Assembly (NCBI RefSeq): GCF_019249215.1
Contig: NZ_JAESDI010000001.1
Coordinates: forward strand, 282,728-314,727
Length of the DNA stretch: 32,000 nucleotides
From: Alteromonas lipotrueae
Lineage (GTDB): Bacteria; Pseudomonadota; Gammaproteobacteria; Enterobacterales; Alteromonadaceae
Direction: 5' to 3'
In this document: positions 2,198 through 25,349 of the stretch, piece by piece
Numbering within the stretch: position 1 is the first letter of the stretch
Layout of the letters: every line of letters begins with the position of its first letter
The notes under the pieces: generated by a model
Told to the model about the DNA's origin: nothing
The model's input: only the letters and a program-made list of their open reading frames with translations
Database searches by the model: none
Position numbers and translations under genes: made by a program

Positions 2198-2216
2198 AGC
2201 TGCAAAACAACAGAAA

Positions 2217-3020
2217 TTATGCGCGTTTATAAAGCCTGGTCATCATAGATCCCCAATAAGCGTGTCGCTTTTGTGAATCTCGTTTGTGCACGGAAGATAA
2301 CCAGTTTTCATTGTCCTGATCTGAACGGTAGACAGAGTCTCGATAGAGATCCACATGATCAGCAAGTACAAAATTTAGCTCAGCAAACAATTCATCAACC
2401 AATGCCGCTGAAAAATGTTGAAAATGGCTAGGATAATGATGTTGAACCCATTCATCCCGATACAAATTGGCGACCGTAGAGCTCGAATCTGGTGTTGCAG
2501 TGATAAAGAAATATCCCTCTTCTGACACTAAATCCGTAAGCTGTTTTAATAACGCCCTAAAGTCCACCAAGTGCTCTAACACTCCTCGCAGAACGACAAG
2601 GTTCATCGTCCCCTTTCCTACTTTATCAACACTCAAGTGATATCCTTTCTGTGTCAATGTCTCTACCGCGCCAATGGATAAGTCATCTCCAAAGGCCCGT
2701 ACGTTTTTAATTCCACCGTGTTCAACCAAGGCATCTAGGAAGTAGCCACCAGAGGCACCATAGTCAAATACAGGCCCTTCTAATGGATCGGTAATTTGGC
2801 TTTTAATCCAATCCACTTCTTGTATGTAAGATACTGCGCGCGCCTTATTTTTTACTTCCGAAGCCTGATGATTTTTTTCATGGTAATGCGCGTAATGGTT
2901 ACTAATTTCAGTTGGCGTTGGTACAGGTACCGTGCAAATATACAGGCAGTCATTACACCGATAATAATTACCCGTCCAAATTTTCAAATCACTACCCTGA
3001 CAGAAGCGGCATATTTTCAT
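2217..3020 (-). CDS. Class I SAM-dependent methyltransferase with N-terminal Cys4 zinc-ribbon
   Basis: N-terminal CRFC...CNDC zinc-ribbon. Glycine-rich SAM motif I (VFDYGASGGYFLDAL) followed by VVLRGVLEHL. Convergent with the GT52-like gene (19-bp gap) and 2 bp downstream of the preceding minus-strand gene. Confidence 0.65.
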   Translation of the reverse strand: MKICRFCQGSDLKIWTGNYYRCNDCLYICTVPVPTPTEISNHYAHYHEKNHQASEVKNKARAVSYIQEVDWIKSQITDPLEGPVFDYGASGGYFLDALVEHGGIKNVRAFGDDLSIGAVETLTQKGYHLSVDKVGKGTMNLVVLRGVLEHLVDFRALLKQLTDLVSEEGYFFITATPDSSSTVANLYRDEWVQHHYPSHFQHFSAALVDELFAELNFVLADHVDLYRDSVYRSDQDNENWLSSVHKRDSQKRHAYWGSMMTRLYKRA

Positions 3021-3022
3021 AA

Positions 3023-3955
3023 TTAATTACTCATCAGTCTATTGGTTAACGAGAACCAAAACGATTTATCTACGTGTGTGTTAAGCGATTTACCCGCCAA
3101 CGACATACGCTGACGCAATTGAGGGTCATCGGCAATTTTCTCAATAGCATTTATCAGCGATGGAATAGTATTTTCTGTTGATGGCAGTGCACACCCATAT
3201 GAATACAAAAAGCGATATGCCTCACTAAAGTTTGTTCGCCGACGAATCACGGTCGGCATTCCCATTAACGCTAATTCAACAGCACTAAGACCACCTTGAC
3301 ATATAACTGCGTTGCACGCCTTTAGGTCACTATAGGAGAAAGCTTGCGATTCTTTATCTTTCAGCTTACGGTGTAAAAACTCGTTAAGCGATAGCGATTT
3401 ATTTTTCTGAGGTGGATAAACAAGTGGCTCATATCCTTGCTCAGCTAACGCATCAACGATAGAAGGCGCCACTCCATCTGCATCACCTCCCCCCATACAA
3501 ACACCTATCAGTCGTGTATTACGGGCTTTGATAGGCTTCGAAGCACTTTCCATCCATTTCGACGAAGGGATGTTGCATAGCACAGCAGACAAATCCGTGA
3601 GAAAGTGAGCTGGTGCAGTCATCCCATTTAAGCTAGGTGCAACAACGTAATCGACATCTTCATTAACATCTGAAATATAAGACAGCGATATCTTCTTCGG
3701 CGCCCTTACGTAGCATTCAGTTTCTTTCTTTAGAGATAATCCATCGAGAAAAACGATATCGGCATCAACAATATTGCGCAGAGCGTACTCATCTTCGAGC
3801 AAGGGATCACCCCACGGCTCTCGATTAACGACTTTTAACGTTACAGCCATTTTAGGCGAAAGTATTTCTCTCAAAAGTTGAGCGCGAGCAACATGGCCCC
3901 ACCCCACATTTTTTCCTATTTCGGCAACGATGAGTACGCTTGCAACAATGTTCAT
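3023..3955 (-). CDS. PseG/SpsG-like UDP-sugar hydrolase (GT28-type fold), second copy
   Basis: N-terminal IGKNVGWGHVARAQLL parallels the G-x-GH-x-x-R motif of PseG (compare GLGHLMRCLAL in the 18067-19119 copy). C-terminal GGLSAVELALMGMPTV is GT28 C-domain-like. 4-bp overlap with the upstream NeuB-like gene. Confidence 0.55.
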   Translation of the reverse strand: MNIVASVLIVAEIGKNVGWGHVARAQLLREILSPKMAVTLKVVNREPWGDPLLEDEYALRNIVDADIVFLDGLSLKKETECYVRAPKKISLSYISDVNEDVDYVVAPSLNGMTAPAHFLTDLSAVLCNIPSSKWMESASKPIKARNTRLIGVCMGGGDADGVAPSIVDALAEQGYEPLVYPPQKNKSLSLNEFLHRKLKDKESQAFSYSDLKACNAVICQGGLSAVELALMGMPTVIRRRTNFSEAYRFLYSYGCALPSTENTIPSLINAIEKIADDPQLRQRMSLAGKSLNTHVDKSFWFSLTNRLMSN

Positions 3956-4941
3956 TTAATATCTGTTTTGTCTATAGGCTTACCTGCAGTGGCATCAGTA
4001 AGCAGAGTCTGACCAACAACCACATCTAATGACTCCAGAGGAAAGTCCCTTTCTGGACGCAAATAAGCTATATCCTCTTTGGTAATAACGTGACCTTTAG
4101 GCAGTGCGTGCCTGAAGTAAAGTCCTCTGCGCGCTCTTTTTGCGGTATAAAGTTCCGCTTCAGTTGGCTCTGAGCGTACACTTTGCATCGCACTTTGGGT
4201 ATCTTTTACCATTTTACAAAACACAGCGAGCGCTTCCCCGTCTAGGGAGTGCTTTACATCAAGACCGCCATTTGCGGGTGATAATGAAAAATGCTTTTCT
4301 ATCCATTCCACCCCTAAAGAAGCCGCTAAAACTGCGGCGGCGTAACCGTCAGAGTGGTCAGAGAAACCAATAGGAATACCGTATCGATTTTGTAACCAAG
4401 GAATAGTGCCCAACATGGCGTTAGACAAATCATGGGGGTATTCCGCCACACAGTGCATGAGAACGATATTGGAAGTATGACTCAATAACCGTTCGACCGA
4501 TTGATCTATTTGCTCAATGGTTGACATACCGGTGGAGAGAATTACTGGAAAGCCACTGGATCCAGCAGCATCAAGAAGATCATTGTAATTGTTATCACCG
4601 CTCGCAATCTTTATGAATGGAGGTTCTGTTTCGATAAGCTCTTCAAGCGATAACAAATCGAAAGGGGTTGATGTAACACAGCGATATCCCCTTTTAGTGG
4701 ATGCACGCTCTACAATACTTTTATATTGTTCATGAGGAATTCGAGAGTGGTGCCTTAACCAACGAACATCATCAATATCGTAGGTGCCATATTCGTAATC
4801 ACCTGGGGCATATAGGGTTTCATCGCGTATTAGTTGAAATTTTACGTAATCAGCACCAGCATTTAACGCAACCTCTGTATTGGTCCACAGCAAAGGAACT
4901 GAACCAAAGTGATTCATGGCCGCTTCAGCAATTATTTTCAT
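3952..4941 (-). CDS. Divergent NeuB-family nonulosonic-acid synthase (second copy) with C-terminal SAF-like domain
   Basis: NeuB landmarks in order: IIAEAAMNH, GADYVKFQ, FIKIASGD, ILSTGMST, LMHCVAEYP, GFSDHS, IEKHF, then a SAF-like tail (RRGLYFRHALPKGHVITKEDI). The first motif departs from the usual NHNGD-type sequence seen in the pseI copy. Confidence 0.7.
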   Translation of the reverse strand: MKIIAEAAMNHFGSVPLLWTNTEVALNAGADYVKFQLIRDETLYAPGDYEYGTYDIDDVRWLRHHSRIPHEQYKSIVERASTKRGYRCVTSTPFDLLSLEELIETEPPFIKIASGDNNYNDLLDAAGSSGFPVILSTGMSTIEQIDQSVERLLSHTSNIVLMHCVAEYPHDLSNAMLGTIPWLQNRYGIPIGFSDHSDGYAAAVLAASLGVEWIEKHFSLSPANGGLDVKHSLDGEALAVFCKMVKDTQSAMQSVRSEPTEAELYTAKRARRGLYFRHALPKGHVITKEDIAYLRPERDFPLESLDVVVGQTLLTDATAGKPIDKTDIK

Positions 4942-6005
4942 TTTACCGGCCTCAATTTAGTCAAGAAACGATTGATTCCTTCGACTTGAATATCATGAAG
5001 GGTATCCCAACAAGGGGGGATCGCGACAGATTCTGGCATATTCTCAACATGATTTTTTAAATCTTCGAAGATTGTTTCTCGGCGCTCAATAATATTTAAG
5101 TCGCACGCTTCCATTCCCAGTGTGTTAATCAGGCTTTCCGAACGTTCATCATAAGAAAGGTTTAGAGTAGGTCTTCTAAGCGACCAAAGCGGTAGACTTG
5201 TATGTACACGAAATGAGATAGCGGCTTCAACGCTATTTAAAATATTGAAGTATTCATACACGTCGCTTGTGTATAGGATATCTCGTCCAAACGACATAGC
5301 ATATTCAATATCTCTTTGATCGTTGCACAGTACGCGCGCCGGTTTATTGGTTCGTGATTCAAGTAAATCAAGACACCGCTCTGACAGATGGTGCATCTTC
5401 ATTTTTTGAGATAGGGGAATATTCATCTGATCGGGATTACGTACCGCAAGCAACGGGAAACGCGCTTCTTGCTGACCATCTTTTGAAAATTCTCTGTTAG
5501 CTAAATCAGAAATGTAGACTGAAGGACACCCACCGACAAGATGATCGGGATGGCGCATGAGCGATTCGATATGATTATACGTTGCTGCATCTCTTGAGAG
5601 AACGACATCAGCATGCTCCAACAGCGTCACCAAGTCGCCGTCATTGATTGCATCTGTTCGCCTTACATACGATAAATCTGAACCGTAAATATTTCCGTAA
5701 GACGTTGAGTAAACCATCATAGGCTTTCTCAGCGCTCTTAATGCCCCTTTATCAAATTCTATTTCGCCATTTTCAAAGAGGTTGCCGCCACCGATAATGA
5801 CGCCTGATGCCGTTTGATTTATATCGTATATTGTTTTTTTGGTTAGGCCTGACTTTGCACCAAACCCCGCAGCAGGTATGGTAATGAAATTCACCGCGCC
5901 GTTACATTGTCGCTCCACCATTCGTCGAACCGCCTGCTGAATCAGGAAGTTACCTATATTAAAGCCATGTCCAAATGGACAAATGTGGTAAATATTATAT
6001 CTCAT
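4938..6005 (-). CDS. Polysaccharide pyruvyl-transferase-family protein (CsaB/WcaK-like)
   Basis: Pattern IGNFLIQQAVRRM ... VIIGGGNLFENG ... VLSRDAATY ... ISFRVHTSL is reminiscent of the PS_pyruv_trans family. Recognised by eye only. 4-bp overlaps with both neighbours. Confidence 0.4.
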   Translation of the reverse strand: MRYNIYHICPFGHGFNIGNFLIQQAVRRMVERQCNGAVNFITIPAAGFGAKSGLTKKTIYDINQTASGVIIGGGNLFENGEIEFDKGALRALRKPMMVYSTSYGNIYGSDLSYVRRTDAINDGDLVTLLEHADVVLSRDAATYNHIESLMRHPDHLVGGCPSVYISDLANREFSKDGQQEARFPLLAVRNPDQMNIPLSQKMKMHHLSERCLDLLESRTNKPARVLCNDQRDIEYAMSFGRDILYTSDVYEYFNILNSVEAAISFRVHTSLPLWSLRRPTLNLSYDERSESLINTLGMEACDLNIIERRETIFEDLKNHVENMPESVAIPPCWDTLHDIQVEGINRFLTKLRPVK

Positions 6006-6724
6006 AATTTAATTCGTTCTTTGTATGCCATAGTAATTCGCTCAATACTTCCAACCTCAGTACTATCAAATACTGGATGTAGCCAGAGCGAACCAAAAAA
6101 GTCGGCGTCTTCTTCATAGTCAATGGTTAAGCGTACGGTTGAGTCAAAATCTGGAATGCTTAAATCATTGGCCTCGATGTTACAAATATTGTCGTTATTT
6201 AGCCTCTTACAAATTGGCGTAATATGTTCTCTTTCTTCTTCTGTATGGCTGCTGTTAACTATTTCACGTAGCCATCGTGAACGATACATTTCTAAAGAGA
6301 TCCCATAAGGGAATGTCCTCTTATTCAAGTTAGTGATCAATTGCGTGGCGTCATCCATATCGCTCAATTTTGAAACGATGTGCTTAATGAGAGGGAATAA
6401 AATGAGCGGACTATCTGCATTAAGCCGCCATAGCCACGCATCCACATTTGCACTCGCTAACTCACACAACCTAAGCATGGGCGACAAGGCGCCTCTATAA
6501 ACTTGCACACCCTTGCCTTCTCCATATCGTGCAATACTATCATCCACAGAGCGAGTTGATGTGGCTATTACTGGCTCTGCTATTGCACTCTCTTCATAGG
6601 CCAGAGCGCGAACTTGCGTAATAATACAATCAATGACGGAATGACTGCCTAAAATTGGCGATAATACCTTTCCAGGAAGCCGGCTAGAGTCGGCTCTAGC
6701 AAATACGACTGGCAGTATTCTCAT
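6002..6724 (-). CDS. SpsF-type cytidylyltransferase-family protein
   Basis: N-terminal ARADSSRLPGKVLSPILG (R-x-x-S-x-RLP-x-K), ATSTRSVDDSI, VYRGAL, RLNADSPL, FPYGISLEMY, EREHITP and RLTIDYEEDADFF follow the SpsF/CTP_transf_3 layout. Confidence 0.6.
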   Translation of the reverse strand: MRILPVVFARADSSRLPGKVLSPILGSHSVIDCIITQVRALAYEESAIAEPVIATSTRSVDDSIARYGEGKGVQVYRGALSPMLRLCELASANVDAWLWRLNADSPLILFPLIKHIVSKLSDMDDATQLITNLNKRTFPYGISLEMYRSRWLREIVNSSHTEEEREHITPICKRLNNDNICNIEANDLSIPDFDSTVRLTIDYEEDADFFGSLWLHPVFDSTEVGSIERITMAYKERIKL

Positions 6725-6949
6725 ATTTTTGACGCCTTATTTTTCATAATCGACTTCAGCAAAAGTTATGCCAGCAACTTTAGGGCTTCGTAAAGTTCGT
6801 TTCTAAATGAAAGTGACTTTTGGAATACATCCCCCCTAAAACGCGTTCAATTGTTTTATTATATCGACAGCTTTTTAAAATTCTTTTGCTTTAAATGCGA
6901 GGACGAATTTTGGGCTTCGGATGAGGTGGCAGGTAAGGTAAACAGAATT

Positions 6950-7891
6950 TTATTTTGACACAAGCGACATATCTATTTTTTTGTCCGACTCCACTCTTAA
7001 TCCTGCGTCTTTAAACTCACTAAATTCAACAACCTGTGTATTTGCATAATCCGTAAACGTGATATTTTTCTTCGGTACATTCCAGTCTGAACCATACAAA
7101 AAGGCTAAATATTCACTGGATTGCACTGGCGTTTGAACTTGGCAAGTGTTCCAGTTGACCAATGCCGTACCGTTAAAATGCTTTTCTGGCGCAAACCACA
7201 TCCCCAAGCTAGGAAGGTGGATAGATTTACCATCTTTGACTTCTCGCGCACTAAACGTTGTTTTGAACTGAGCTAGATTATTAAGGGGGTCGTCAAACTC
7301 CAATACAATACCAATACCTCTATTCTTTTTATCTAGGGTTTTTGAGACTTTCCAGGTTAAGTTACTTACGTTATTTTCGACAAATGCCTCGATAACATTC
7401 AGTACACTCTGGAAATAATGTGTGGGCATTGAAAAGTCGATATCGTCATCCCACTCGATAATATCTTTGTCTCGAATGATACCCAGCAATGTTCCAAAAT
7501 CGAGCACAAGAGGAACACTCTCATTTATGGCTATTGAAGATAGCTCGCTAATAATGTTGCGACCCAATTGTCGGCTTGCGGCATTATAAAATGGTGGAGT
7601 TTGTTTTTTTAAGTGACTTTTAGGTGGCACAACGATTTTTTGATGCGGGACATTGAGTTCATTGAGTAACTGCGCTTCAACTTCTACTGCCCACTGGGTG
7701 GTTATTACTATTTCATCGAATACTAAGTGTCCAATAGCGGCAGGGCTAATAACTGGCACGCCTTCGATAAGTAACCCTTCTTTCTGTTTATCGTTATCAA
7801 CAATACCAATAAACTCTCGGGACGTTTCATTATTAGAGATATACGTTTTTGAGCTTTCGCCTGCCCCAAATAATAGCGTTTTTGTTTTCAT
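6950..7891 (-). CDS. LicD-family phospho(no)-group transferase with N-terminal small Rossmann-like domain
   Basis: LicD signature LLGIIRDKDIIEWDDDIDF (DDDID at nt 7436-7450). The N-terminal ~90 aa (LLFGAGESSK...GIVDNDKQKEG..IEGVPVISP) resembles the small nucleotide-binding domain found on NeuD/PglD-type and sugar-transferase proteins. Confidence 0.7.
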   Translation of the reverse strand: MKTKTLLFGAGESSKTYISNNETSREFIGIVDNDKQKEGLLIEGVPVISPAAIGHLVFDEIVITTQWAVEVEAQLLNELNVPHQKIVVPPKSHLKKQTPPFYNAASRQLGRNIISELSSIAINESVPLVLDFGTLLGIIRDKDIIEWDDDIDFSMPTHYFQSVLNVIEAFVENNVSNLTWKVSKTLDKKNRGIGIVLEFDDPLNNLAQFKTTFSAREVKDGKSIHLPSLGMWFAPEKHFNGTALVNWNTCQVQTPVQSSEYLAFLYGSDWNVPKKNITFTDYANTQVVEFSEFKDAGLRVESDKKIDMSLVSK

Positions 7892-7918
7892 GGCCGAAAA
7901 TGCCTATTTTTCTCGTAG

Positions 7919-9019
7919 TTAAGACAAACTCTCTTTAATGATGGCTTTAACTAAATCTGGCGTGACTGCCGTTGTAAAATTACCCGCCCGGGAAGGATCG
8001 AGTTCGCGGTCAACAGCTTTAAGCATTTGCGGTAATTCTGCAAACTTCTTCATTTCGTCGTTGAGGCGTAATGCATCCAAGAGATTAATTATCCTATCGA
8101 CCATGTCTTGGGATAACTTTAATCTGTTTGCCCCTACAACCTTTAACATTGCCGCCAAAGTAAAACTACAGGCTAAACCGTGGGGTACCTTAAATTCAAT
8201 GGTCAAAGGATATGAGATTGCGTGGGCAAGTGCAGTTTTAGTTTCTGAAATCGCAAGACCTGATAAAAATGCCGCGAATTGCAGAGCCGCTCGGCCTTCA
8301 ATGTTCTTAGGTTTTTTAAGCACGGGCCGCAAATGCTCACAAATTAGTGCTATGGCTTGCACTGCATAGCGCTCAGAAGTGTTCGACCGCCTTACATTCC
8401 ATAATGATTCGATAGCATGGGACAAAGCATCTAATGCTGTCACCATGGTTTCATAAGGCGGTAATCCTACCGTTAAATTCGGATCTAAAACAACCTTATC
8501 GCTTTCAGCATGGTCAATAGAATATTTCTTTTTATCACCCGTATCCCATACTGTAGCAAATGGGGTGATTTCAGCCCCTGTTCCCGAGGTGGTGGGGATG
8601 GCGATTAACGCCACAGAATTTGACACTGCTTTTCGTGCAGCCATAAGTTGGTGTAGGCCGCCGCTTTGTGTTTGCAACATAACCCGAAGTACTTTAGAGG
8701 TGTCTAACACGCTACCACCGCCTAGCGCGATAATATGAGTGACTTTACTTGTTTTAAATCGCGCATAAAGTCCATCGATATAGGTTAACTCTGGATTAGG
8801 GGTTACATCATCAATCACGCGAAAACGTTCACATTTCAGTTTGGCTTTGAATGCATCCACAACACCACGCTTAACAAACCCCTGACTTGTAACAAGTAGA
8901 ACCTCATGGTTGGCTTCTATCAGTTTACTCACACTAGATAAGTAATCATCTGATTGAATTAACCGCTCGTTTAAGGCTTTAGTTAGCATGGGCGGCATGA
9001 AACTCATATCATTCGCCAT
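7919..9019 (-). CDS. Group III iron-containing alcohol dehydrogenase; predicted phosphonoacetaldehyde reductase
   Basis: Fe-ADH motifs GGGSVLDTSK, DALSHAIESLW and ALAHAISYPLT...PHG. Overlaps the 3' end of the phosphonopyruvate decarboxylase gene by 11 bp (start could instead be an internal Met a few codons in). The phosphonate-specific role is inferred from context. Confidence 0.65.
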   Translation of the reverse strand: MANDMSFMPPMLTKALNERLIQSDDYLSSVSKLIEANHEVLLVTSQGFVKRGVVDAFKAKLKCERFRVIDDVTPNPELTYIDGLYARFKTSKVTHIIALGGGSVLDTSKVLRVMLQTQSGGLHQLMAARKAVSNSVALIAIPTTSGTGAEITPFATVWDTGDKKKYSIDHAESDKVVLDPNLTVGLPPYETMVTALDALSHAIESLWNVRRSNTSERYAVQAIALICEHLRPVLKKPKNIEGRAALQFAAFLSGLAISETKTALAHAISYPLTIEFKVPHGLACSFTLAAMLKVVGANRLKLSQDMVDRIINLLDALRLNDEMKKFAELPQMLKAVDRELDPSRAGNFTTAVTPDLVKAIIKESLS

Positions 9020-10151
9020 GACTGTGCTGCATAAATGCTAATTTATTCTCGATGGGGGTAGACGTAGGACGTCCCAAATCACTTCTTGCACCTTGTTTAA
9101 TTTTAACTTCAAACAAAATTGGACCTTTACATTGAGGCATTGCAGCAATAATCTTTGACCACGCTTCAGTAAGTGAGTCACTATCATCACAACAATAATA
9201 CGCGTCGTATTTGCATCCTAATGCAATGCTTTCTATGTCAATACCTCCAGCTACAGTAGGCTGCCCACCCACCGAGTCATGGCATTGATTATTGAGTACC
9301 ACATGGATCAAGTTGTCAAGGTTACTTGCTCCAGCAATAGCTAGTGCCCCCATGTGCATTAGCATCGAACCGTCACCATCAAGCGCTATCACTTGACGGT
9401 TTGGTTTTACACGGGCTACTCCCATCGCAATGGATAAGGTATGTCCCATTCCACCAACGGTAAGGAAATCTGTATTATCTTGGTTATTTGTTTGTCTAAT
9501 TTCAAACAATTCCCTTGATGTTTTCCCAGTGGTTGAGATGATTAACTCTGCACCAGACATGTTTCCCAGCAAAAGAGACAGGGCTTCCTCTCTGCTCATC
9601 TCACATCGGTTTTCAACTGACTTACTGCTAGCCGAGTCCGTAGCTGAAAAGGTGTCTTTTCTAACCAAAATGGCTACAGGACATGTATTGGTTTTCATGG
9701 TTTCTAGTAATGGTGGCAAAGCATCTTCTAGAATCGAACCCGAATCTATCGTGATATAAGGGATTCCTAGCACATCCAACTGCTGCTGCGTTATTTGACC
9801 TTGTTTTACATGCTGTGGTTCGTCTTTAACATTAGGCTCACCTCGCCATCCAATCACCATCAACATTGGAATCCCGTAAACCTCTGGATCAGCAAGTGAC
9901 GTGAGTGGATTTATCGTGTTTCCCAATCCAGAGTTCTGCATATATACGACAGCGGGTTGCCCTGCCCCTAAGTAATGACCTGTCGCCATTCCAATAGCAT
10001 TGCCCTCATTAGCGGTAATCACATGCGCGTTAGATTCAAACGTAGAATCGATATAAGCACACAAATTTTTCAGTAGCGAGTCTGGTACACCGTAATAGTT
10101 GCTCAAGCCATGTTGGGCGAGTAAGTGACAAAACAATTCAGGGGATACCAT
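9009..10151 (-). CDS. ppd: Phosphonopyruvate decarboxylase (thiamine-diphosphate dependent)
   Basis: N-terminus GVPDSLLK, mid-region IPMLMVIGWRGEP, and the TPP-binding GDGSMLMHMG...VVLNN motif. ~380 aa, typical Ppd size. Sits immediately downstream (4-bp gap) of PEP mutase. Confidence 0.85.
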   Translation of the reverse strand: MVSPELFCHLLAQHGLSNYYGVPDSLLKNLCAYIDSTFESNAHVITANEGNAIGMATGHYLGAGQPAVVYMQNSGLGNTINPLTSLADPEVYGIPMLMVIGWRGEPNVKDEPQHVKQGQITQQQLDVLGIPYITIDSGSILEDALPPLLETMKTNTCPVAILVRKDTFSATDSASSKSVENRCEMSREEALSLLLGNMSGAELIISTTGKTSRELFEIRQTNNQDNTDFLTVGGMGHTLSIAMGVARVKPNRQVIALDGDGSMLMHMGALAIAGASNLDNLIHVVLNNQCHDSVGGQPTVAGGIDIESIALGCKYDAYYCCDDSDSLTEAWSKIIAAMPQCKGPILFEVKIKQGARSDLGRPTSTPIENKLAFMQHSHGE

Positions 10152-10155
10152 AGTG

Positions 10156-11457
10156 CTACTTACCGCCCGGTATCAATTCTAGAATTTGTTTAATAGGCAT
10201 CATTTGGGCATCAACTTCTGAACTTCGCCCATGGCGTAAAATAGACTCTGCAGTGTTGCACATTGCTGGGTATGCGCTTCGCAGTAATTGATTAGCATAA
10301 ATAACTACATTCACACCCCGCGCTTGAAGCTCATGTTCAAAGACGGTGTTATAACTAGAAGGCACCACTACCAACGTCTTTTTGTTTTCGAATTTTGCAT
10401 AACGGTCACAAAATTCAAATATTTCATCTGGTGATTTTTCTCGGCTATGGATCATAATGCCATCAGCCCCAGCCTCTAAAAATGCTTTAGCTCGCTCGAG
10501 AGCATCATCTATACCTTTGCCTAATATTAAGCTTTCAATACGGGCAATAATCATAAAGTCATTGGTAGCTTGAGCACTTTTACCCGCTGATATTTTTTGG
10601 CTAAAAGCTTCAATTGTATCTTGAGTTTGCGCTACATCAGTGCCGAATAAAGAGTTCTTTTTAAGTCCGGTTTTATCTTCAATAATAACCGCAGACACAC
10701 CCAGCCTTTCTAAGGTCTTCACCGTGAAAGTGAAATGCTCTGTTTTTCCGCCCGTATCGGCGTCATAAATAATCGGTTTTGTAGTAACTTCTAGCACTTC
10801 ATTTAAGGTGCTCATACGAGAAGATACATCTACGGCTTCAATATCGGGTTTTCCCTTTGCTGTTGAATCTGTAAGGCTACTTCCCCACATCCCATCAAAC
10901 TCTTTAACCCCAGTATCCGTTTCTATCTTTGTATTCTCGATTATCAACCCTGACAAGGCGTTGTGAATATCCAAAAAGCGAACCAGAGGCTTAGCAGCCA
11001 TTAATCGTTTTAAGGATTTCAATCGAATGGCAGGCGTGGTCCCCACTTCTTTCATCGCTTGGTGTAATTGTGAAGAAGAAATACCTTGGGTATAAGGCAC
11101 TTCTATGAGCTTCCCTCCCCATTGGGCCAAGCAATCGATAACCCGCTGTCGAGTTTTCTGCTGAACACCCGTTTTCCAATCATCACCATGCACGACATAA
11201 TCAGGTTTCAATGTCTCTAGATTAGGAACATAGTCTAATGTAGTTTGAGGTATTACAGCATCCACACCTTTTATATTTTCAATTACAACTTTCCGTTGCT
11301 CAAACTCCATAAAAGGCACTCGCTTATAACTCGCGATTGCAGCGTCGGTTAAAAGCCCGACGGTGACGTCGCCTAATTTGGCGGCGCTCTTGAGAACATT
11401 AAGATGGCCAGGATGAACCAAATCGGCACTCATTCCTACATAAACACTCTTTGTCAT
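10156..11457 (-). CDS. pepM: Bifunctional cytidylyltransferase / phosphoenolpyruvate phosphomutase fusion
   Basis: N-terminal ~130 aa carry the HxGH cytidylyltransferase motif ([13 protein letters not shown]). The C-terminal domain has PEP mutase landmarks [28 protein letters not shown] and ANQLLRSA. The PepM-diagnostic EDKX5NS motif ([10 protein letters not shown]) was verified at nt 10651-10680. Confidence 0.9.
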
Positions 11458-11505
11458 AATAATTTTTCCATACCTCTATCGCAAAGTCTTCTGGTGACGA
11501 GTTAA

Positions 11506-11531
11506 TATCGGCACAAAAAATAAAACTTTAA
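11506..11531 (-). promoter_or_regulatory. Sigma-28 (FliA)-type promoter candidate upstream of the pepM fusion gene
   Basis: Minus strand reads TAAAGTTT-N10-GCCGATAT. The enterobacterial consensus is TAAAGTTT-N11-GCCGATAA: the -35 half is identical, the -10 matches 7 of 8, and the spacer is one nt short. Lies in the 117-bp maf/pepM gap, about 50 nt upstream of the ATG. Confidence 0.45.
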
Positions 11532-11574
11532 ATTTAAGTGTATTGGCAAAGTGGACTGTATTGAGTTAACGACA

Positions 11575-14500
11575 CTAAGCATTAATATCAGATATCATGT
11601 TTTTCACACGGGTTTCATTTGCGTCTTCTAAAAGTAATGAATCTATCTGTATATTTCCTCTGCACACCTTACCTCTATTTCCAATATTATCGCATGCTAA
11701 GCTAGAAGCTAGAACGCCTTTACGAGGGATAGCAATATACCTTGCATATTCTATATATTCTTCAACCCATGAGAGAGATTCAAGTAATGGTGCTAAGTAG
11801 CGTTGCTTTTGAATTGCACTGCTGTTCGTGAACTCATATTTAGGCAAGAACATGAACACATCTTCTTGATTACAGAGAAAACCTGGCACAAAATGTTGCT
11901 TAGCAGTGTGCACAAAAGGTCTATCTCCAGCTTCAAATGAAGGAATATCTAGCGCATTCGGCGAATACCAAATATAAATGCTAACCTTACTCTTAAGTTC
12001 GAATAATCGTGTAACAACACTTTCTTCAACAAGACTGAAGGTTCCAACGAGGCTGTTTATTTCGCTACCAATATTGCTCAATAAACTATCCAGAGCAGTT
12101 ACCTTGCGCCTAAAATGTATATGATAAGCATCACATTCACTACTTTTTGGGGTCTTAGCTAACGATAGTGCCGAGTCAATTGTTTCCACTAATTTCTTAT
12201 CTGTCTCTTCAATATCTAGGCTGAAAGTTTTATCTCCAGATGTTATCCACGCTTTTATAAACACAGATTCTCTTAAAAATACGCAAGAGCTGGTAGTATC
12301 GAATGCCGAAGCATCGCCGATGTAGCTAATTGATACTTTCTCTAATGTATCTAGCCATTGCAAACGCGCTTCATCAAGCGCCGTCAAACTATCCGTTGTG
12401 GAGGATAATTTGCTGAAGACTGCATTGGCATAGTTGATAGTTCCATACAGCAAATAAAATAAGAGTGATTTCTTCATTTGATACGACTCGAATATCATCT
12501 CCTTTTGAACCTTAATAAACTCATCTGCTTCGTCATTTGATGAGAAGGGTACTTTTACTTTTTCCATGAAGATAGAAAGCTCGTCTTTCAGTGCATCAAC
12601 ATCGAATCTCGCATTAAATAGAGAGGGATATTCATCAGGTTTTTCAATTGGTTGAAACGCATTATTTTTTATAACATCTAGTGCAGCATCTCTTTGACTA
12701 GATGATGCAGAAATTAATACCATATCTAAAGGTAAAGGCGTTGCACCGGCTATTTTTGCACCATCGCTGCAGTTGAAACATGTAAGCCCATTTTGCGCTA
12801 AGGACTGCTCGATGATCGTTTTGGAAAGTTTAAACTCGTACTTCGTGAACACAGTGGCTCTGAAATTACCAGGCACAACAATTGATGTATTATTGCTGGC
12901 CTCATAGTCATAAACCTCTTTACCGTTGACATAGTAGGAAGATTCTTTCGAGTGGTGTTTAGTCTTGTCATAAAAGCCTAAATCTACGCCAAATAAGTAA
13001 ATCTGATCCATCCCAATTTTTGAAAACAGATTGATAGCTAAATTTGATACCGTCGGGAATGCGAAACGTAACTCTTCATAGTTAGCCCGTCCTAAAACTT
13101 CTAAGGCTGAAACGGTGGACGACTCGCCATCTTTAAATGCTATATAAACATCGTTGAAAAGGTCACAAGTGTCAGGGTGAATACCATTAACTGAGATTAA
13201 GTTTATTTGTTTGAGATAATTAAAATCATCGACTCGACTACACCAATCAAAGGTAGAGCGATTTTGCTCAATTTCAGCATGAAAATCTGGCGTAATATCG
13301 TGTTTATACAATGCTGAAAGCGCAGTTCCGCAAGAGACAACAATTGCATTCTCTCGGTACTCCAAAATGGTTTCTATCGCCGAATCTAAAGACGGGCCAT
13401 TCCCTACGATAAAAACAGGAACTTCTTTGTTTTCAAAAGATAAATATTGCGCAGGCTTATTACGCAGAAGTGGAAAGCCTCTTTTTAATGCCTCAGTAGT
13501 GTGAGAGATACCATACCTTGCATGGTCAAAATATTCCCCCATAGAAATAACGACCTGAAGTTGTTCCCTCAATTGAGCAATTGCCGACACTAATGCTGAA
13601 TTGTAATAGCTCTGATAGAAATAGGTATTCGCAAGTATATAGGGGCCAATAGAATAAAACTGATTTAGCAAATCTTTAAATAAATTAGTGCCATCGTCAC
13701 CGATGTTAATGTACAAACGCCCTTCTTTTTCATCAATACCAGATAAAATTTCATCCCACTTTATGGCAAATAAAGATGCGTAAAAAAAATCTTTATTAGG
13801 TTCGCATACAAATAACTTTTCTACGTCGTGATTATTGAACAAACGCTCTATTTGGTAACCCACTCCAACGCCAAAAAGAATCATGGACTTCAGCGTATCT
13901 GGCAATTGTCCTTCATCTTGCTCTACTTGTTTTAAGAGCGATTCTGTTTTATTGACAAATTGATAGTGGATATATTTCTTAAGCTTTTTCCCTTTATAGC
14001 CAAGTATTAGTCCGTCTTTATTCGGCTGATCACTAAAACTGTCAAAATTTAGCGCGCATTCCTGTTTGGGTGATTCTCCATACCAAGAAACAAGGGAGTC
14101 CTTCTTCACTAAATTGATTTCACCATTGCTGTCTTCTACAGGCAACCATGTTTGCGGTTCGTAATGACTAAAACTGTTAAAAATATCGGGAAAATATTTT
14201 TTGAAGGCAGCGAGGTTACTTTTCAGTCTACCTTGTGCTTCTGCACTAGGATCCTGGTAATTTTCTAATTGTATTGATTGCGTCCAAGGTGGCACGTATT
14301 CTGTTGGACTTCTTAGTTTATATGAAGTAATACCAGTACTCTTAAGCCGAGCCCAACCGCCCTGAATACATGTTTTTTCTATGGTATCGAAAATAGGAGA
14401 ATTGTAATGTTTGTATAAATAAAATCCCCCTATGTCGAAATGCTGTCTAAGCTCTTCAATATCGCTAACAATATTTCGGCCATCTTTTTCGAGTTGAAAA

Positions 14501-15108
14501 AATAACCGCGTACCTTTGTCGTTAGCTTCTGCCAAAACGTCGTTCCATTTTGAGCAAAATACCGAGCATTTGAAATATTGTGCTTCAGGCTCGTAAATAA
14601 CTAAGTTGGTTATAGAGTGTTTTTTTATTAACTCAACAATATGGAAGCCTAATCCAACCCCTAACACTACAAGAGTATCTATGGTCTCGGGTAAGGCACT
14701 TCGTTGTATATAATGTTGATATGAAAAAGTATTCGCTAAAGATCCCTCTAAACTTTCATTAGTTTCGACCTCTGCCGGATTAGTTTCATCGCATTGCTTA
14801 AGGTCGACAAAAATCGAGTGGGTACTATTTACCAAATATTGTTTACTGATTTCCGCTTCAGGATCTAGCCCATAAAGCGTTCGCCCGATGCCATAGTCGA
14901 CTAAGTTAAACTGCCCGTTTTTGTTGCAGATAATAGAAATATTGTCATTGTTTATTTTTTGTATATTAGCTATTAGTGACGGTATAAATTGTCTAAAAGC
15001 AAACAGGTTTTTCTTATACTGTCGATCGATTAGCTCGGCGGTATACTTTTCGATTTGCGCTTGTTTCTCTTCATCTTTAAAAATATGCAATCGAACATTT
15101 TTAAGCAT
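11575..15108 (-). CDS. maf: Motility accessory factor (Maf, DUF115/MAF_flag10) flagellin nonulosonate transferase, oversized 1177 aa
   Basis: Core Maf motif VFIVGNGPSLD (GNGPS verified at nt 13390-13404), followed by VVSCGTA ... HAEIEQN ... IYLFGVDLGF. Located between pseH and the phosphonate genes. The N-terminal domain is present twice (see repeat feature). Confidence 0.8.
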   Translation of the reverse strand: MLKNVRLHIFKDEEKQAQIEKYTAELIDRQYKKNLFAFRQFIPSLIANIQKINNDNISIICNKNGQFNLVDYGIGRTLYGLDPEAEISKQYLVNSTHSIFVDLKQCDETNPAEVETNESLEGSLANTFSYQHYIQRSALPETIDTLVVLGVGLGFHIVELIKKHSITNLVIYEPEAQYFKCSVFCSKWNDVLAEANDKGTRLFFQLEKDGRNIVSDIEELRQHFDIGGFYLYKHYNSPIFDTIEKTCIQGGWARLKSTGITSYKLRSPTEYVPPWTQSIQLENYQDPSAEAQGRLKSNLAAFKKYFPDIFNSFSHYEPQTWLPVEDSNGEINLVKKDSLVSWYGESPKQECALNFDSFSDQPNKDGLILGYKGKKLKKYIHYQFVNKTESLLKQVEQDEGQLPDTLKSMILFGVGVGYQIERLFNNHDVEKLFVCEPNKDFFYASLFAIKWDEILSGIDEKEGRLYINIGDDGTNLFKDLLNQFYSIGPYILANTYFYQSYYNSALVSAIAQLREQLQVVISMGEYFDHARYGISHTTEALKRGFPLLRNKPAQYLSFENKEVPVFIVGNGPSLDSAIETILEYRENAIVVSCGTALSALYKHDITPDFHAEIEQNRSTFDWCSRVDDFNYLKQINLISVNGIHPDTCDLFNDVYIAFKDGESSTVSALEVLGRANYEELRFAFPTVSNLAINLFSKIGMDQIYLFGVDLGFYDKTKHHSKESSYYVNGKEVYDYEASNNTSIVVPGNFRATVFTKYEFKLSKTIIEQSLAQNGLTCFNCSDGAKIAGATPLPLDMVLISASSSQRDAALDVIKNNAFQPIEKPDEYPSLFNARFDVDALKDELSIFMEKVKVPFSSNDEADEFIKVQKEMIFESYQMKKSLLFYLLYGTINYANAVFSKLSSTTDSLTALDEARLQWLDTLEKVSISYIGDASAFDTTSSCVFLRESVFIKAWITSGDKTFSLDIEETDKKLVETIDSALSLAKTPKSSECDAYHIHFRRKVTALDSLLSNIGSEINSLVGTFSLVEESVVTRLFELKSKVSIYIWYSPNALDIPSFEAGDRPFVHTAKQHFVPGFLCNQEDVFMFLPKYEFTNSSAIQKQRYLAPLLESLSWVEEYIEYARYIAIPRKGVLASSLACDNIGNRGKVCRGNIQIDSLLLEDANETRVKNMISDINA
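13579..15018 (-). repeat. Internal tandem duplication of the Maf N-terminal domain (copy 1 about aa 31-245, copy 2 about aa 295-510)
   Basis: Collinear matches at a constant offset of about 263 aa: KKNLFAFRQFIPSL / LKSNLAAFKKYFPDI; LVVLGVGLGFHIVEL / MILFGVGVGYQIERL; VIYEPEAQYFKCSVFCSKWNDVL / FVCEPNKDFFYASLFAIKWDEIL; GTRLFFQLEKDG / GRLYINIGDDG. Confidence 0.75.
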
Positions 15109-15146
15109 TTTTGGCGATTATCCTTTGTAGAATTTTGAGGTATGGC

Positions 15147-15680
15147 CTACTCAAAGTCAGCCAAAAATGAAGAAAAGCGTTTCTTTTGCAACCAGTCTTC
15201 TTTGTGAAGTTCAAATAGATGTAAATCATACCACTCGTCGTTTTTATAAATATGTGATTGATATACACCTACATCTCGATAAGCATGTAACCTGTGTAAC
15301 TTCATTACTTTTTCGTTATTGCTCAAAACTTCAGCTGTAATTTTGTTAATATTTTCACTCGCAAAAACATAGTTGTAGAAATAAGGAGGGATTAATCCGC
15401 CTAACTGTTTTAAATTTGGATCTCCAATATAAAACCCCCAACTACATCTTTTGTGTTCTACGCTAATTTCAGATTGATTAAGCACACCAATAGACTGATG
15501 GTTGTACTCAATAATCCAATACCCACTTTTACGATCAGACTGAATGGCTTGGAACCATTTCTTTTGCTGTTCAAGATCATAGCTCACGTCACTTAGCATA
15601 AACTTATTCACATCATCGCTTGTTCGCCATTTTAAAATAATAGCTAAATCATCGGGAGTTATATGGCGAAACTTAAACAC
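15147..15680 (-). CDS. pseH: GNAT N-acetyltransferase, PseH-like
   Basis: 177 aa. N-terminus FRHITPDDLAIILKWRTSDDVNKFM follows the PseH pattern (L-x-W-R-x-x-x-x-V). GNAT-like core. Apparent GTG start with AAGG 8 nt upstream. Completes the pse gene set in this island. Confidence 0.6.
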   Translation of the reverse strand: MFKFRHITPDDLAIILKWRTSDDVNKFMLSDVSYDLEQQKKWFQAIQSDRKSGYWIIEYNHQSIGVLNQSEISVEHKRCSWGFYIGDPNLKQLGGLIPPYFYNYVFASENINKITAEVLSNNEKVMKLHRLHAYRDVGVYQSHIYKNDEWYDLHLFELHKEDWLQKKRFSSFLADFE

Positions 15681-15691
15681 TAAAGTACCTT

Positions 15692-17056
15692 TTATAGAGA
15701 ACGTTGTTTTTTAAACCTTGGGCTAAATTGCACATTATCATCGAAGATAAACTTAGCGGGTACTTGGAAGTTTTCTAGGTGCGCTTTACAAAAGCGTTTA
15801 ATCGCCGCCTTGAGCTCTTTTTTATTTTCATGCAGTGATCCTTCGGTGCTATCAACCAGCCTAATTTTGCTATATACCACATTACCCAACAGAGCATTTG
15901 GTTCGCCATACACTTCAGCTTCAGCGATATAGTCAAGTTGTTGTAATACACTTTCTACTTCCGCAGGGTATACCTTTTGACCACCAACATTGATTATTTC
16001 TGAGTCTCGCCCTAGCACCTTGATATATTCACCATTCACCTCGACCTTATCGCCGGTATGAAACCACCCATCAGGGGTATAAGGGCTAGGCGCATTCAAA
16101 TAACCTAACATACCCGAATATGCCTTCACCTCTAAAATATTATCGGTGGTTATTCTCGTCTGGAAACCTTCCCCTCCTACTTTCATCCAAAGTGAAGATG
16201 ACGACTTAGATTTAGAGCGTAAGATGCCAATCTCGGATAGGCCGTAGGTTTGGAGCAATTTGATGTCAGGAAATAACTGATTAAACCTAAGTAAAACTGA
16301 TTCAGGCATGGGTTCGGTGCCGTATGTAACAGTACTTAATGAGCTAAGATCGTAACGCTTGTAGGCTTCACTAATGAGGATTAAGTTGATAAAGGTTGGT
16401 GATGTAGGTAGGAGTTCGGCTCTAAACTTGTCAACGGCTTCAAGAACGGTGTCAGGTTTACGATCTGTTACGGTAATAACGCATCCGGCGTTAGACAAGG
16501 TATACAATAAAGTATTAACCCCACCTATATGGTCATACAACAAAAAAGTGATTGCACGTAATGCATGCCGGCCGACTTTAAACTTTTCGAGTAACTTTGC
16601 CATGTCATGAACAGCAGCTTTACTTTTGCCTGTCGACCCAGATGAAAATAACACAAGACCCGGTATTTTTTGCCCGCGTAAGTCAGCTATGAGTTCATGA
16701 GAAGCCTTCGTTGATAACGTATCGATTTCATACTCATCGTTATCTTTAATTGTCACCACAACTTCGACCTGTGCAGTTTCAATAAACTCATCCCTCTTAT
16801 GCGCTACAGAGGTAGTGGTTGGAACTAATATAGTGGCTCTTTCAATAAGTGCCAGCAGTAACGCCACCGAGCTTGGAGAATAGTCAGCGTCTACCATCAC
16901 CACAGTCCCTTCGGTAACGCCATAGTTGGCTAAAACATCTTGCCAAAACTGCGTTTTTTCTAGGAGCCATCCGTATGAATATGCCTGATCTCGCCAAACA
17001 ATAGCATCGCTATTCTTATTCTTTTCAAATATTTCCAGAAAAAAATCAATAAACAT
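15692..17056 (-). CDS. Adenylate-forming enzyme (acyl-CoA/acyl-ACP ligase family)
   Basis: AMP-binding core motifs LFSSGSTGKSKAA, YGLSE, GWFHTGDKVEV and GRDSEIINVGGQKVYPAEVE. The start codon overlaps the SDR stop (ATGA-type, 1 nt). Confidence 0.8.
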   Translation of the reverse strand: MFIDFFLEIFEKNKNSDAIVWRDQAYSYGWLLEKTQFWQDVLANYGVTEGTVVMVDADYSPSSVALLLALIERATILVPTTTSVAHKRDEFIETAQVEVVVTIKDNDEYEIDTLSTKASHELIADLRGQKIPGLVLFSSGSTGKSKAAVHDMAKLLEKFKVGRHALRAITFLLYDHIGGVNTLLYTLSNAGCVITVTDRKPDTVLEAVDKFRAELLPTSPTFINLILISEAYKRYDLSSLSTVTYGTEPMPESVLLRFNQLFPDIKLLQTYGLSEIGILRSKSKSSSSLWMKVGGEGFQTRITTDNILEVKAYSGMLGYLNAPSPYTPDGWFHTGDKVEVNGEYIKVLGRDSEIINVGGQKVYPAEVESVLQQLDYIAEAEVYGEPNALLGNVVYSKIRLVDSTEGSLHENKKELKAAIKRFCKAHLENFQVPAKFIFDDNVQFSPRFKKQRSL

Positions 17057-17766
17057 CAGGCTCCCCCTAAATATAAAATTTGTCCTGTAATGAAACTGCT
17101 TTCTGGTTTGATATAAAAATCGATGACATTAGACACATCCGCCATTTCGCCGAATCTCTTTATACTCTGCTTTTCGAGCAGTTTATTTAACTTATCATCA
17201 GGAACATTTTTAATTAGATCCGTTTGAATTGGCGTTGGGCCAATGGCGTTCACAGTAACGCCAAATTCTGAAAATTCTTTCGCCAATGTTTGTGTCAGGC
17301 TTTCTACAGCAGATTTTGACGCGGCATAAATGGCTTCGCCTTCTAAAGCAAAAGGCACGGCAACTGTAGAGAAGTTAACAATTCGCCCATATTGATTTTT
17401 ACGCATTAGCTTGACCGCTTCGCGGCAAAATAAGAAACTCGCAAATACATTAGTTGAGAAAATTTTCTCTACCGTAGATAGGGGCGTCAACATCGCGTGA
17501 TTCATAGCCGCTATGCCAGCATTGTTGATAAGTACATCGAGCCGCTTATGACGCTTACGAATTGACGAGAAAAGAGATTTGACGTCAATTTCACTTGCCA
17601 CATCTAAACTAAAATGTTGGTAATTTTGGTGTTCAATTGATAATTCCGAACGGCTACACCCAATAACAATATGACCTGCATTTAAATAGTAATGAGTTAG
17701 GTATAACCCTATTCCCCTGCTTGATCCGGTTATCAAAATGACTTGTTGAGTATGTGACGTATCCAT
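17056..17766 (-). CDS. Short-chain dehydrogenase/reductase (3-oxoacyl-ACP reductase-like)
   Basis: TGSSRGIG cofactor motif, NNAG, and the catalytic YAASKSAV (Y-x-x-x-K). 1-nt overlap with the ACP gene upstream. Confidence 0.8.
   Translation of the reverse strand: MDTSHTQQVILITGSSRGIGLYLTHYYLNAGHIVIGCSRSELSIEHQNYQHFSLDVASEIDVKSLFSSIRKRHKRLDVLINNAGIAAMNHAMLTPLSTVEKIFSTNVFASFLFCREAVKLMRKNQYGRIVNFSTVAVPFALEGEAIYAASKSAVESLTQTLAKEFSEFGVTVNAIGPTPIQTDLIKNVPDDKLNKLLEKQSIKRFGEMADVSNVIDFYIKPESSFITGQILYLGGA

Positions 17767-20890: not shown

Positions 20891-20894
<4 letters not shown>
20178..20894 (-). CDS. pseF: Pseudaminic acid cytidylyltransferase
   Basis: N-terminus AIIPARGGSKRIPKKNIRLFSGKPLIAYSI and AEVPFIRPEALSDD are typical of the CMP-nonulosonate synthetase family. 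4-bp overlap with pseC. Confidence 0.8.
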
Positions 20895-23055
<2,161 letters not shown>

Positions 23056-23873: not shown

Positions 23874-23891
23874 AATATCTCCGAAAACTTC

Positions 23892-25325: not shown

Positions 25326-25349
25326 ACTTTACCTCGTTAAACACGGTTG

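Follow-up and report, generated by a model that had tools for sequence, protein, structure and literature searches.

A Predicted Phosphonyl-Tailoring Cassette within a Flagellin Glycosylation Island of Alteromonas lipotrueae

1. Introduction

Surface phosphonates are genetically widespread and their macromolecular carriers are mostly unknown. A known route to 2-hydroxyethylphosphonate (HEP) employs phosphoenolpyruvate (PEP) mutase (PepM, also termed Ppm), phosphonopyruvate decarboxylase (Ppd) and an iron-dependent alcohol dehydrogenase (Fe-ADH) (PMC8942020). The cytidylyltransferase (CyTase) domain of Fom1, from the fosfomycin pathway, then transfers cytidine monophosphate (CMP) from cytidine triphosphate (CTP) onto HEP to yield CMP-HEP, and 23.6% of Ppm proteins are fused to a domain of the same family, PF01467 (PMC6697681). 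Marine high-molecular-weight dissolved organic phosphorus (HMW-DOP) contains HEP and methylphosphonate as its main phosphonates, and glycoproteins have been proposed as their carriers (PMC8931226). On flagellin, 2-aminoethylphosphonate (2-AEP, or AEP) was detected by mass spectrometry in Clostridioides difficile, where the GlcNAc of the FliC type A glycan carries it as a minor variant; this organism has no pepM and the origin of its AEP is unexplained (PMC8861647). Here, we describe a four-gene cassette, pepM-ppd-adh-licD, which is predicted to synthesise, activate and transfer HEP and which lies within a flagellin glycosylation island of Alteromonas lipotrueae. The window analysed is a stretch of 32,000 nucleotides (nt) from contig NZ_JAESDI010000001.1 of assembly GCF_019249215.1.

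Flagella are not mentioned in two surveys of phosphonate gene neighbourhoods, PMC6697681, where the string "flagell" does not occur, and PMC8942020, from 2022. A 2025 review refers to "phosphonate moieties" on flagellin glycans, and two of the three sources it cites were traced, to papers on C. difficile type A and Pseudomonas aeruginosa b-type flagellins. The modifications covered by these two papers are reportedly phosphate-linked rather than phosphonates. Our literature search found no report that places pepM in a maf/pse island or HEP on flagellin, and none of the LicD clade described below.

2. Enzymes for Synthesis and Activation of the Phosphonate

The open reading frames (ORFs) of at least 150 amino acids (aa) in the window were scanned against Pfam and NCBIfam. 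The elements that are central to this work are listed below by position in the window, all on the minus strand.

6950–7891, minus strand: LicD/FKRP-fold phosphotransferase, predicted HEP (phosphonyl) transferase (PF04991; N-terminal PF22674)
7919–9019, minus strand: Fe-dependent alcohol dehydrogenase, predicted phosphonoacetaldehyde reductase in the PhpC/FomC role (PF00465, PF25137)
9009–10151, minus strand: phosphonopyruvate decarboxylase, Ppd (TIGR03297, TPP_enzyme_N, TPP_enzyme_C)
10156–11457, minus strand: bifunctional cytidylyltransferase-PEP mutase, Fom1-like (TIGR02320, PF13714, PF01467)
11506–11530, minus strand: sigma-28 (FliA)-type promoter-like site, TAAAGTTTTATTTTTTGTGCCGATA
11575–15108, minus strand: Maf (motility accessory factor), of the flagellin nonulosonate glycosyltransferase family, 1177 aa

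The region is a canonical Maf/Pse flagellin glycosylation island in that Maf, a full gene set for CMP-pseudaminic acid and adjoining flagellin genes are all present. Maf is identified by matches to PF20157 (Maf_flag10_N; E 1e-120, two stretches) and PF01973 (MptE-like), and PseB, PseC, PseF, PseI, PseG and PseH each exceed their NCBIfam equivalog cutoffs. The four-gene cassette lies between maf, with the complete pseBCHGIF set, and a second set of sugar-acid genes, with flagellins on both flanks of the island. Its genes are tightly spaced, with 4 nt between pepM and ppd, an 11-nt overlap of ppd and adh, and 27 nt between adh and licD, while 117 nt separate maf from pepM. An initial annotation, made from the sequence, had described four co-directional genes with overlaps or short gaps, directly downstream of maf and a complete pse pathway and flanked by flagellins, and the spacings and family matches agree with that description.

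[quoted passage not shown] The protein comprises a CyTase domain at about aa 1–138 (nt 11044–11457) and a PepM domain at about aa 149–431. The former matches PF01467 over residues 10–131, with the HxGH motif present as HPGH (aa 15–18, nt 11404–11415), and the N-terminal 138 residues align without gaps to the CyTase domain of Fom1 (PDB 5x3d), with 93 of 134 positions identical (69%, E 1.3e-65). Because of this identity to a characterised domain, we infer a Fom1-like catalysis in which CTP and HEP yield CMP-HEP. Ppd matches TIGR03297 with 440 bits (cutoff 312.5) and shows the thiamine pyrophosphate (TPP) motif GDG-X24-NN (aa 259–288, nt 9288–9377); its top PDB sequence matches were deposited as putative phosphonopyruvate decarboxylase subunits (9iz3). 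With equivalog cutoffs passed and diagnostic motifs present, the two proteins are, on sequence criteria, PepM and Ppd. The best NCBIfam model for the Fe-ADH is TIGR03405 (Phn_Fe-ADH), with 297 bits (E 1.6e-88) against 157 bits for the next model and a cutoff of 423.7, and its predicted substrate is phosphonoacetaldehyde. Given the family scores and the gene arrangement, chance is not an issue for the module.

Neither a class-V aminotransferase (AEP transaminase, AEPT) nor Fom3-, Fom4-, MpnS- or HEPD-like proteins occur among the window ORFs of at least 150 aa. Because the CyTase is of the Fom1 type, PepM, Ppd and Fe-ADH constitute the HEP route and no AEPT is encoded in the window, the activated product is predicted to be CMP-HEP rather than CMP-AEP, and formation of CMP-HEP is very likely. 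The initial annotation had recognised the EDKX5NS motif at 10651–10680 in a PepM fused to an HxGH CyTase, and Ppd, with its GDG...NN motif, Fe-ADH and a LicD protein with DDDID at 7436–7450. Its coordinates for these are correct and the families match; its end coordinate for the module, 11531, takes in the promoter-like site at 11506–11530, the pepM ORF itself ending at 11457.

The conservation of pepM is unusually strong for one gene of the operon. The CyTase-PepM fusion protein (CT-PepM) is 89–91% identical across Alteromonas species when loci L001, L051 and L086 are compared with 6950–15108 of the window (labels of this form denote related genomic loci compared with the window, L001 being from Alteromonas sp. 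BMJM2). For Maf, Ppd, Fe-ADH and LicD on either side of it, by contrast, identity to the proteins of the window is only 56–69% in these loci. Identity of CT-PepM amounts to 80–85% across genera of the Alteromonadaceae and 67–70% in Campylobacterota.

3. The LicD/FKRP-Type Transferase

The product of licD matches PF04991 with 42.5 bits (cutoff 22.6), and its DDDID motif is part of a highly conserved region, since residues D131, G133–G137 (GTLLG), R140, W147, D148–D150 and D152 (WDDDxD) are invariant among 26 homologues. An AlphaFold2 model built from the alignment of these homologues has a mean predicted local distance difference test (pLDDT) score of 91.9 and represents a soluble protein, with no membrane segment predicted. 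Its top 13 matches in the PDB are all to FKRP (probability 1.00, E 1e-7 to 2e-6, about 180–190 aligned columns), a CDP-ribitol ribitol-phosphate transferase of the LicD/fukutin family. The enzyme is predicted to use a cytidine-nucleotide donor with release of CMP, and a LicD-type transfer to a glycan is probable. With CMP-HEP as donor, the product would therefore be an ester of the form glycan-O-P(O)(OH)-CH2CH2OH. The order of steps proposed earlier, from PepM and Ppd through a reductase and cytidylyl activation to LicD transfer, is thus in accord with the family scores, the Fom1 similarity and the FKRP-like fold.

Residues 1–100 of LicD form a separate Rossmann-like domain, assigned to PF22674 (C2185-like_N) by precomputed annotation. 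In related islands, PF22674 is also fused to GT2 glycosyltransferases or occurs as a stand-alone ORF (L081 16281–17387; L082 3404–5149, 10914–11315 and 12620–14068; L083 20074–20936), and it may serve the enzymes that tailor flagellin glycans as a common module for docking or nucleotide binding.

4. Linkage to Pseudaminic Acid and Flagellar Genes in Other Genomes

Two scans of other genomes were made. One was seeded with PepM and covered one genome per species, and the other, a metagenome scan seeded with LicD, was analysed by tblastn and with a neighbour-joining tree (without support values). Each comprised 80 loci among the matches listed, with flanks of up to 10 kb.

The CT-PepM/Ppd/Fe-ADH trio is widespread among the PepM-seeded loci, occurring in archaea, Planctomycetota, Spirochaetota, Bacillota and Stackebrandtia, and the position of Fe-ADH after pepM-ppd is kept in most of the 80. 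All 15 of the Alteromonadaceae loci among the matches listed, from Alteromonas, Paraglaciecola, Aliiglaciecola and Catenovulum, carry pepM-ppd-adh-licD adjoining pse genes. LicD-seeded loci extend this association, in other gene orders, to Aliarcobacter skirrowii, a member of the Campylobacterota (pseBCFI..SDR-ligase-licD-pepM-ppd-adh, where SDR is a short-chain dehydrogenase/reductase), to Nitrincola alkalilacustris (flaG-fliD-fliS-flagellin-maf..neuB-licD-maf..adh-ppd-pepM) and to Shewanella baltica, where the module lies beside flgT, flgO and flgP. An association of pepM with maf, pse or flagellin genes in other genomes, which the initial annotation had suggested looking for, is thus found in Alteromonadaceae, Shewanella, Nitrincola and Campylobacterota. 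In a second A. lipotrueae genome (GCA_019249255.1, contig JAESDJ010000001.1), LicD is 100% identical to that of the window and the gene order is the same.

In the LicD tree, the window's protein falls in a coherent clade where pepM and ppd are present in 9 of 9 loci, a count confined to LicD-seeded loci that are flanked on each side by 6 kb or more; L001–L014 and L051 were found through PepM, which would render the pepM count circular, and were therefore left out. In sister LicD clades (26–33% identity) pepM is present in 0 of 12 loci, while 9 of the 12 have Pse or flagellar neighbours. Because these sister clades mostly adjoin Pse or flagellar genes even without pepM, the whole LicD family looks, on sequence comparison, like a group of flagellar-island tailoring enzymes with one clade specialised for a phosphonate donor. 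Sister-clade copies with the same N-terminal domain (L120, L122, L126, L130, L132, L134, L136, L140 and L144) lie at about position 10001 in most of their loci, in Pse/flagellin islands, with no pepM within 10 kb; in L134 there is no cytidylyltransferase among the neighbours of the pepM-less licD.

The genes accompanying the module differ between loci. In Campylobacterota and in several metagenome loci, licD is directly adjoined by SDR and AMP-ligase genes. Further enzymes for anionic groups are also found with the module in related islands: an adenylylsulfate (APS) kinase accompanies it in Nitrincola (L083 12505–13098), and a sulfotransferase and a TagF-like glycerophosphotransferase are encoded near it in S. 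baltica (L082 5223–6062 and 11283–12533). In Aliiglaciecola litoralis (L002 6164–9947) maf does not directly precede pepM; the three upstream genes code for an AMP-ligase, an acyl-protein synthetase resembling LuxE and an acyl-CoA reductase resembling LuxC, and the acyl-modification genes beside the module therefore vary between genera.

5. Promoter-Like Sites

The sequence TAAAGTTTTATTTTTTGTGCCGATA (11506–11530, minus strand) lies within the maf-pepM gap, 49 nt upstream of the pepM ATG. As a pattern match, it fits a sigma-28/FliA promoter of the type TAAAG-N(13-15)-GCCGATAA at a suitable distance from the gene, and FliA dependence is predicted. When the search pattern TAAAG-N12-16-GCCGATA was applied to the window, with expectation taken from shuffles, it gave 2 exact matches in 32 kb against 0.01 expected, the second (26896–26921, minus strand) being located upstream of the flagellin gene at 25928–26767. 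A variable spacer is needed in such searches, as a fixed 15-nt spacer overlooks the pepM site. Transcription is predicted from the sequence to start about 7 nt downstream of GCCGATAT, near nt 11499. Between maf and pepM, three other Alteromonas-type loci show little overall conservation; the GCCGATA -10 element stands at the same position in L001 and L051 and is missing in L086. A scan of 6000–16000 for sigma-70 promoters and terminators gave counts at or under shuffle expectation, and the intergenic gaps from maf to licD contain no terminator-like site.

A motif resembling a sigma-28 site, TAAAC/GTT...GCCGATA, is found repeatedly within the 3' coding part of the Fe-ADH gene, about 180–195 nt upstream of licD (L004 13297–13323, L005 13294–13320, L007 13310–13336, L014 13299–13325 and L093 9784–9810). 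The copy in the window (8094–8121, minus strand) has 2 mismatches and encodes ...KLSQDMVDR...; the motif may be an internal licD promoter or simply conserved coding sequence. A search for the sigma-54 consensus with at most 2 mismatches found 24 sites where 15.9 were expected, an excess that is not significant. Two well-placed sites with 1 mismatch are leads only, one at 6758–6773 on the minus strand (TGGCATAACTTTTGCT), 34 nt upstream of the gene at 6002–6724, and the other at 23204–23219 on the minus strand (TGGCGCAGAGCTTGCT), about 167 nt upstream of pseB.

6. Proposed Pathway and Alternative Explanations

We propose that the four genes act as a cassette for phosphonyl tailoring within the flagellin glycosylation island. 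PepM would convert PEP to phosphonopyruvate, from which Ppd would generate phosphonoacetaldehyde, and Fe-ADH would reduce the latter to HEP, which the Fom1-like N-terminal domain would combine with CTP to form CMP-HEP. The cytoplasmic LicD/FKRP-type enzyme would transfer the hydroxyethylphosphonyl group onto a glycan hydroxyl, with release of CMP, before export. The acceptor glycan would be of the pseudaminic-acid type and attached to flagellin by Maf, and the group accepting the phosphonate would be either the sugar itself or a hydroxyacyl substituent provided by the adjacent acyl carrier protein (ACP), AMP-ligase and SDR genes, resulting in a phosphonate monoester at the filament surface. 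A 3-hydroxyacyl substituent of the nonulosonate is a plausible, if speculative, acceptor because of the SDR and AMP-ligase genes directly beside licD in the Campylobacterota and metagenome loci. The cassette would be co-transcribed with late flagellar genes from the sigma-28-type promoter.

The chain as a whole has, in our judgement, somewhat better than an even chance of being correct. The flagellin glycan, already named as the likely target in the initial annotation, is a fairly probable one, given the position of the cassette behind maf (same strand, no terminator-like site), the sigma-28 promoter-like site and the comparative linkage, which extends over several orders and into a second phylum. 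There is about an even chance that the polar flagella of marine Alteromonadaceae, Shewanella and Oceanospirillales, and those of some Campylobacterota, carry HEP-esterified Pse-type O-glycans made by a FliA-controlled pathway with a dedicated LicD clade.

A number of points weigh against the proposed pathway. The Fe-ADH scores under the trusted cutoff of TIGR03405 (297 against 423.7 bits), the PF04991 match spans only residues 126–188 of LicD, and the sigma-28 site is a consensus match rather than a mapped promoter and is absent in L086. Many related loci show only pse genes and no flagellar structural gene within the 10-kb flanks. The enzyme identities, the gene context, the promoter-like site and the comparative linkage rest on comparison of sequences or structures, in part predicted; from these we infer what Fe-ADH and LicD act on, which group is the acceptor and that flagellin carries HEP. 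Moreover, pseudaminic acid is also found in lipopolysaccharide (LPS) and in capsules of marine bacteria and, therefore, the acceptor could be a non-flagellar glycan sharing the precursor. CMP-HEP would then be made as proposed and LicD would place HEP on an LPS O-antigen, capsule or exopolysaccharide using the island's nonulosonate, the location in the island reflecting shared precursor supply only. Such a target would accord with the several related loci that have pse genes and lack flagellar genes inside 10 kb, with the dozens of non-flagellar contexts, including archaea and Stackebrandtia, in which the CT-PepM/Ppd/Fe-ADH trio occurs, and with the HEP known on the exopolysaccharide of Stackebrandtia nassauensis (PMC8942020). 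It is nevertheless unlikely, as a sigma-28-type promoter is common to pepM and a flagellin gene, Maf lies directly upstream, the LicD family, including its pepM-less sisters, is found beside flagellin, FlaG, FliD, FliS or Maf in many loci, and genes for Wzx/Wzy, ABC exporters or polyprenyl-phosphate transferases were not found in the window.

We give a lower probability still to LicD phosphonylating Ser/Thr residues of flagellin directly, or modifying the CMP-nonulosonate before transfer by Maf. The sequence does not fix the acceptor, the enzyme is soluble with an extra N-terminal domain, and its tightest gene neighbours in Campylobacterota and several metagenome loci are SDR and AMP-ligase genes, all of which would be compatible with action at either stage; however, FKRP was co-crystallised with a sugar acceptor and the LicD clade strictly co-occurs with nonulosonate synthesis genes. 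The LicD/FKRP enzymes that have been characterised use, to our knowledge, the hydroxyls of sugars or alditols as acceptors. It is very improbable that CMP-HEP serves as a transient carrier for a diffusible phosphonate, as in fosfomycin biosynthesis, or as a methylphosphonate precursor, even though the CyTase is 69% identical to that of Fom1, an antibiotic-pathway enzyme: the window lacks a radical-SAM/B12 methyltransferase (Fom3), an epoxidase, MpnS/HEPD-like proteins, ATP-grasp proteins and an exporter, its ORFs of at least 150 aa are all glycan or flagellar in function or without a match, and the LicD transferase is strictly coupled to the cassette. Transfer of AEP, or of another derivative, in place of HEP has a similarly slight probability. 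AEP is by far the commonest surface phosphonate, with 56% of ppm neighbourhoods (PMC8942020), it is the phosphonate of C. difficile flagellin (PMC8861647), and the genome could have a transaminase gene at another site, but the gene after ppd, here and in every related locus, is that of an Fe-ADH rather than of an AEPT, and the CyTase is of the Fom1 (HEP) type PF01467, whereas characterised AEP-specific enzymes are of the PntC type PF12804 (PMC6697681).

7. Layout of the Island

Nearly all genes from nt 9 to 29856 are carried on the minus strand, and their order of transcription is three flagellins, FlaG, FliD, FliS, pseBCFIG, ACP-like, SDR, AMP-ligase, pseH, maf, the phosphonate cassette and the distal set. 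The features other than those given in Section 2 are as follows.

9–833, minus strand: flagellin, divergent copy (PF00669 and PF00700), one boundary of the island
1061–2197, plus strand: polysialyltransferase/GT52-like
2217–3020, minus strand: methyltransferase (Zn-ribbon)
3023–3955, minus strand: PseG-like, weak match
3952–4941, minus strand: NeuB-like, score under both the NeuB and PseI cutoffs
4938–6005, minus strand: pyruvyltransferase-like
6002–6724, minus strand: CMP-sugar-synthetase-like (KdsB-like cytidylyltransferase)
15147–15680, minus strand: PseH
15692–17056, minus strand: AMP-ligase
17056–17766, minus strand: FabG-like SDR
17766–18062, minus strand: ACP-like ORF, 98 aa, with an LDSVDL motif and no Pfam match
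18067–19119, minus strand: PseG
19126–20181, minus strand: PseI
20178–20894, minus strand: PseF
20891–22036, minus strand: PseC
22033–23037, minus strand: PseB
23445–29856, minus strand: FliS, FliD, FlaG and three flagellins (Pfam), the other boundary of the island
25928–26767, 27490–28341 and 29005–29856, minus strand: the three flagellins

FlgL is also among the flagellar proteins of the window identified with Pfam, and between a flagellin gene and flgL there is an ORF of 328 aa (30084–31070, plus strand) with no Pfam match. In the genomic context of L085, FleQ, FleS and FleR come after the divergent flagellin of 9–833, beyond the window. The distal genes at 1061–6724 constitute a second, atypical sugar-acid set beyond licD, which suggests that the flagellin glycan also receives a second, unusual ulosonic acid; this set is kept only in Alteromonas sp. 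BMJM2 (L001) and is therefore outside the conserved phosphonate core. Horizontal acquisition of the module was considered and a foreign composition was not seen, its G+C content being 0.40–0.44 as against 0.36–0.45 for the rest of the window.

8. Significance

A phosphonate cassette in a flagellin glycosylation island has, as judged from our search, not been described before, and sequence evidence argues for the present one. If the proposed pathway is correct, it would be the first case in which phosphonylation of a flagellin glycan is genetically defined, with a specific, purifiable carrier protein and a named transferase, so that the tailoring step from CMP-phosphonate via LicD would become directly testable. 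A charged, phosphatase-resistant group would extend the known nonulosonate decorations of flagella, which influence filament assembly, phage adsorption and grazing. Moreover, shed flagella would be a concrete source, glycoprotein in nature, for the HEP accumulating in marine HMW-DOP; its glycoprotein carriers were proposed without a candidate (PMC8931226), and flagellin would be one.

The theme may be broader, as is suggested by the AEP on C. difficile flagellin and by genes of Roseburia. In a Roseburia metagenome-assembled genome (MAG; L074 1978–18049), and also in L061, an AEPT-PntC fusion, Ppd and CT-PepM make up an AEP pathway within about 5 kb of a glycosyltransferase of the GT2-TPR (tetratricopeptide repeat) type and a flagellin of 595 aa. 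Lachnospiraceae may thus have flagellin glycans modified with AEP, a possibility relevant to the unexplained AEP of C. difficile.

9. Comparison with Known Systems

For C. difficile FliC, a phosphonate likewise occurs on a flagellin O-glycan, and such a modification therefore exists. The initial annotation had stated that no phosphonylated flagellin glycan was characterised and had spoken of a new class of flagellar modification; in view of the 2022 report of 2-AEP on the C. difficile flagellin glycan (PMC8861647), the former statement is out of date and the latter overstated. The A. lipotrueae locus differs in having a dedicated synthesis-activation-transfer module in a Pse/Maf-type island, with HEP predicted from the genes. 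In S. nassauensis, HEP is esterified to an exopolysaccharide glycan (PMC8942020), and the same CT-PepM/Ppd/Fe-ADH trio is present in a Stackebrandtia MAG (L027). The carriers considered there and for marine HMW-DOP are exopolysaccharides or unidentified glycoproteins, for which a flagellar link was not proposed.

The Lic pathway, in which LicC and LicD handle phosphocholine, and the FKRP/fukutin enzymes share with the window's LicD the Pfam family, a DxD-type motif, the FKRP-like fold and a cytidine-nucleotide donor. The A. lipotrueae enzyme differs from them in its added PF22674 domain, in a predicted phosphonate rather than phosphodiester donor and in belonging to a distinct clade restricted to nonulosonate/flagellar islands. 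The Pnt phosphonyl tailoring described by Rice et al. (2019, PMC6697681), with Ppm, PntC and a LicD-like protein, follows the same logic of activation and then transfer to a surface glycan. However, the characterised PntC belongs to PF12804, is specific for AEP and has presumed wall glycan or lipid targets, whereas here the activating domain belongs to PF01467, HEP is the predicted substrate and the genes lie in a maf/pse island.

The early fosfomycin pathway of Streptomyces wedmorensis (Fom1, Fom2 as Ppd and FomC as Fe-ADH) has the same three proteins with the same fusion, and its CMP-HEP (PMC6697681) is the predicted product here too. Fom3, Fom4 and FomD are absent from the A. lipotrueae locus, where a LicD-type transferase follows CMP-HEP instead, so that CMP-HEP is predicted to act as a glycan-tailoring donor and not as a carrier for methylation. 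The module is thus the early fosfomycin pathway joined to the LicD step of the Pnt and Lic systems.

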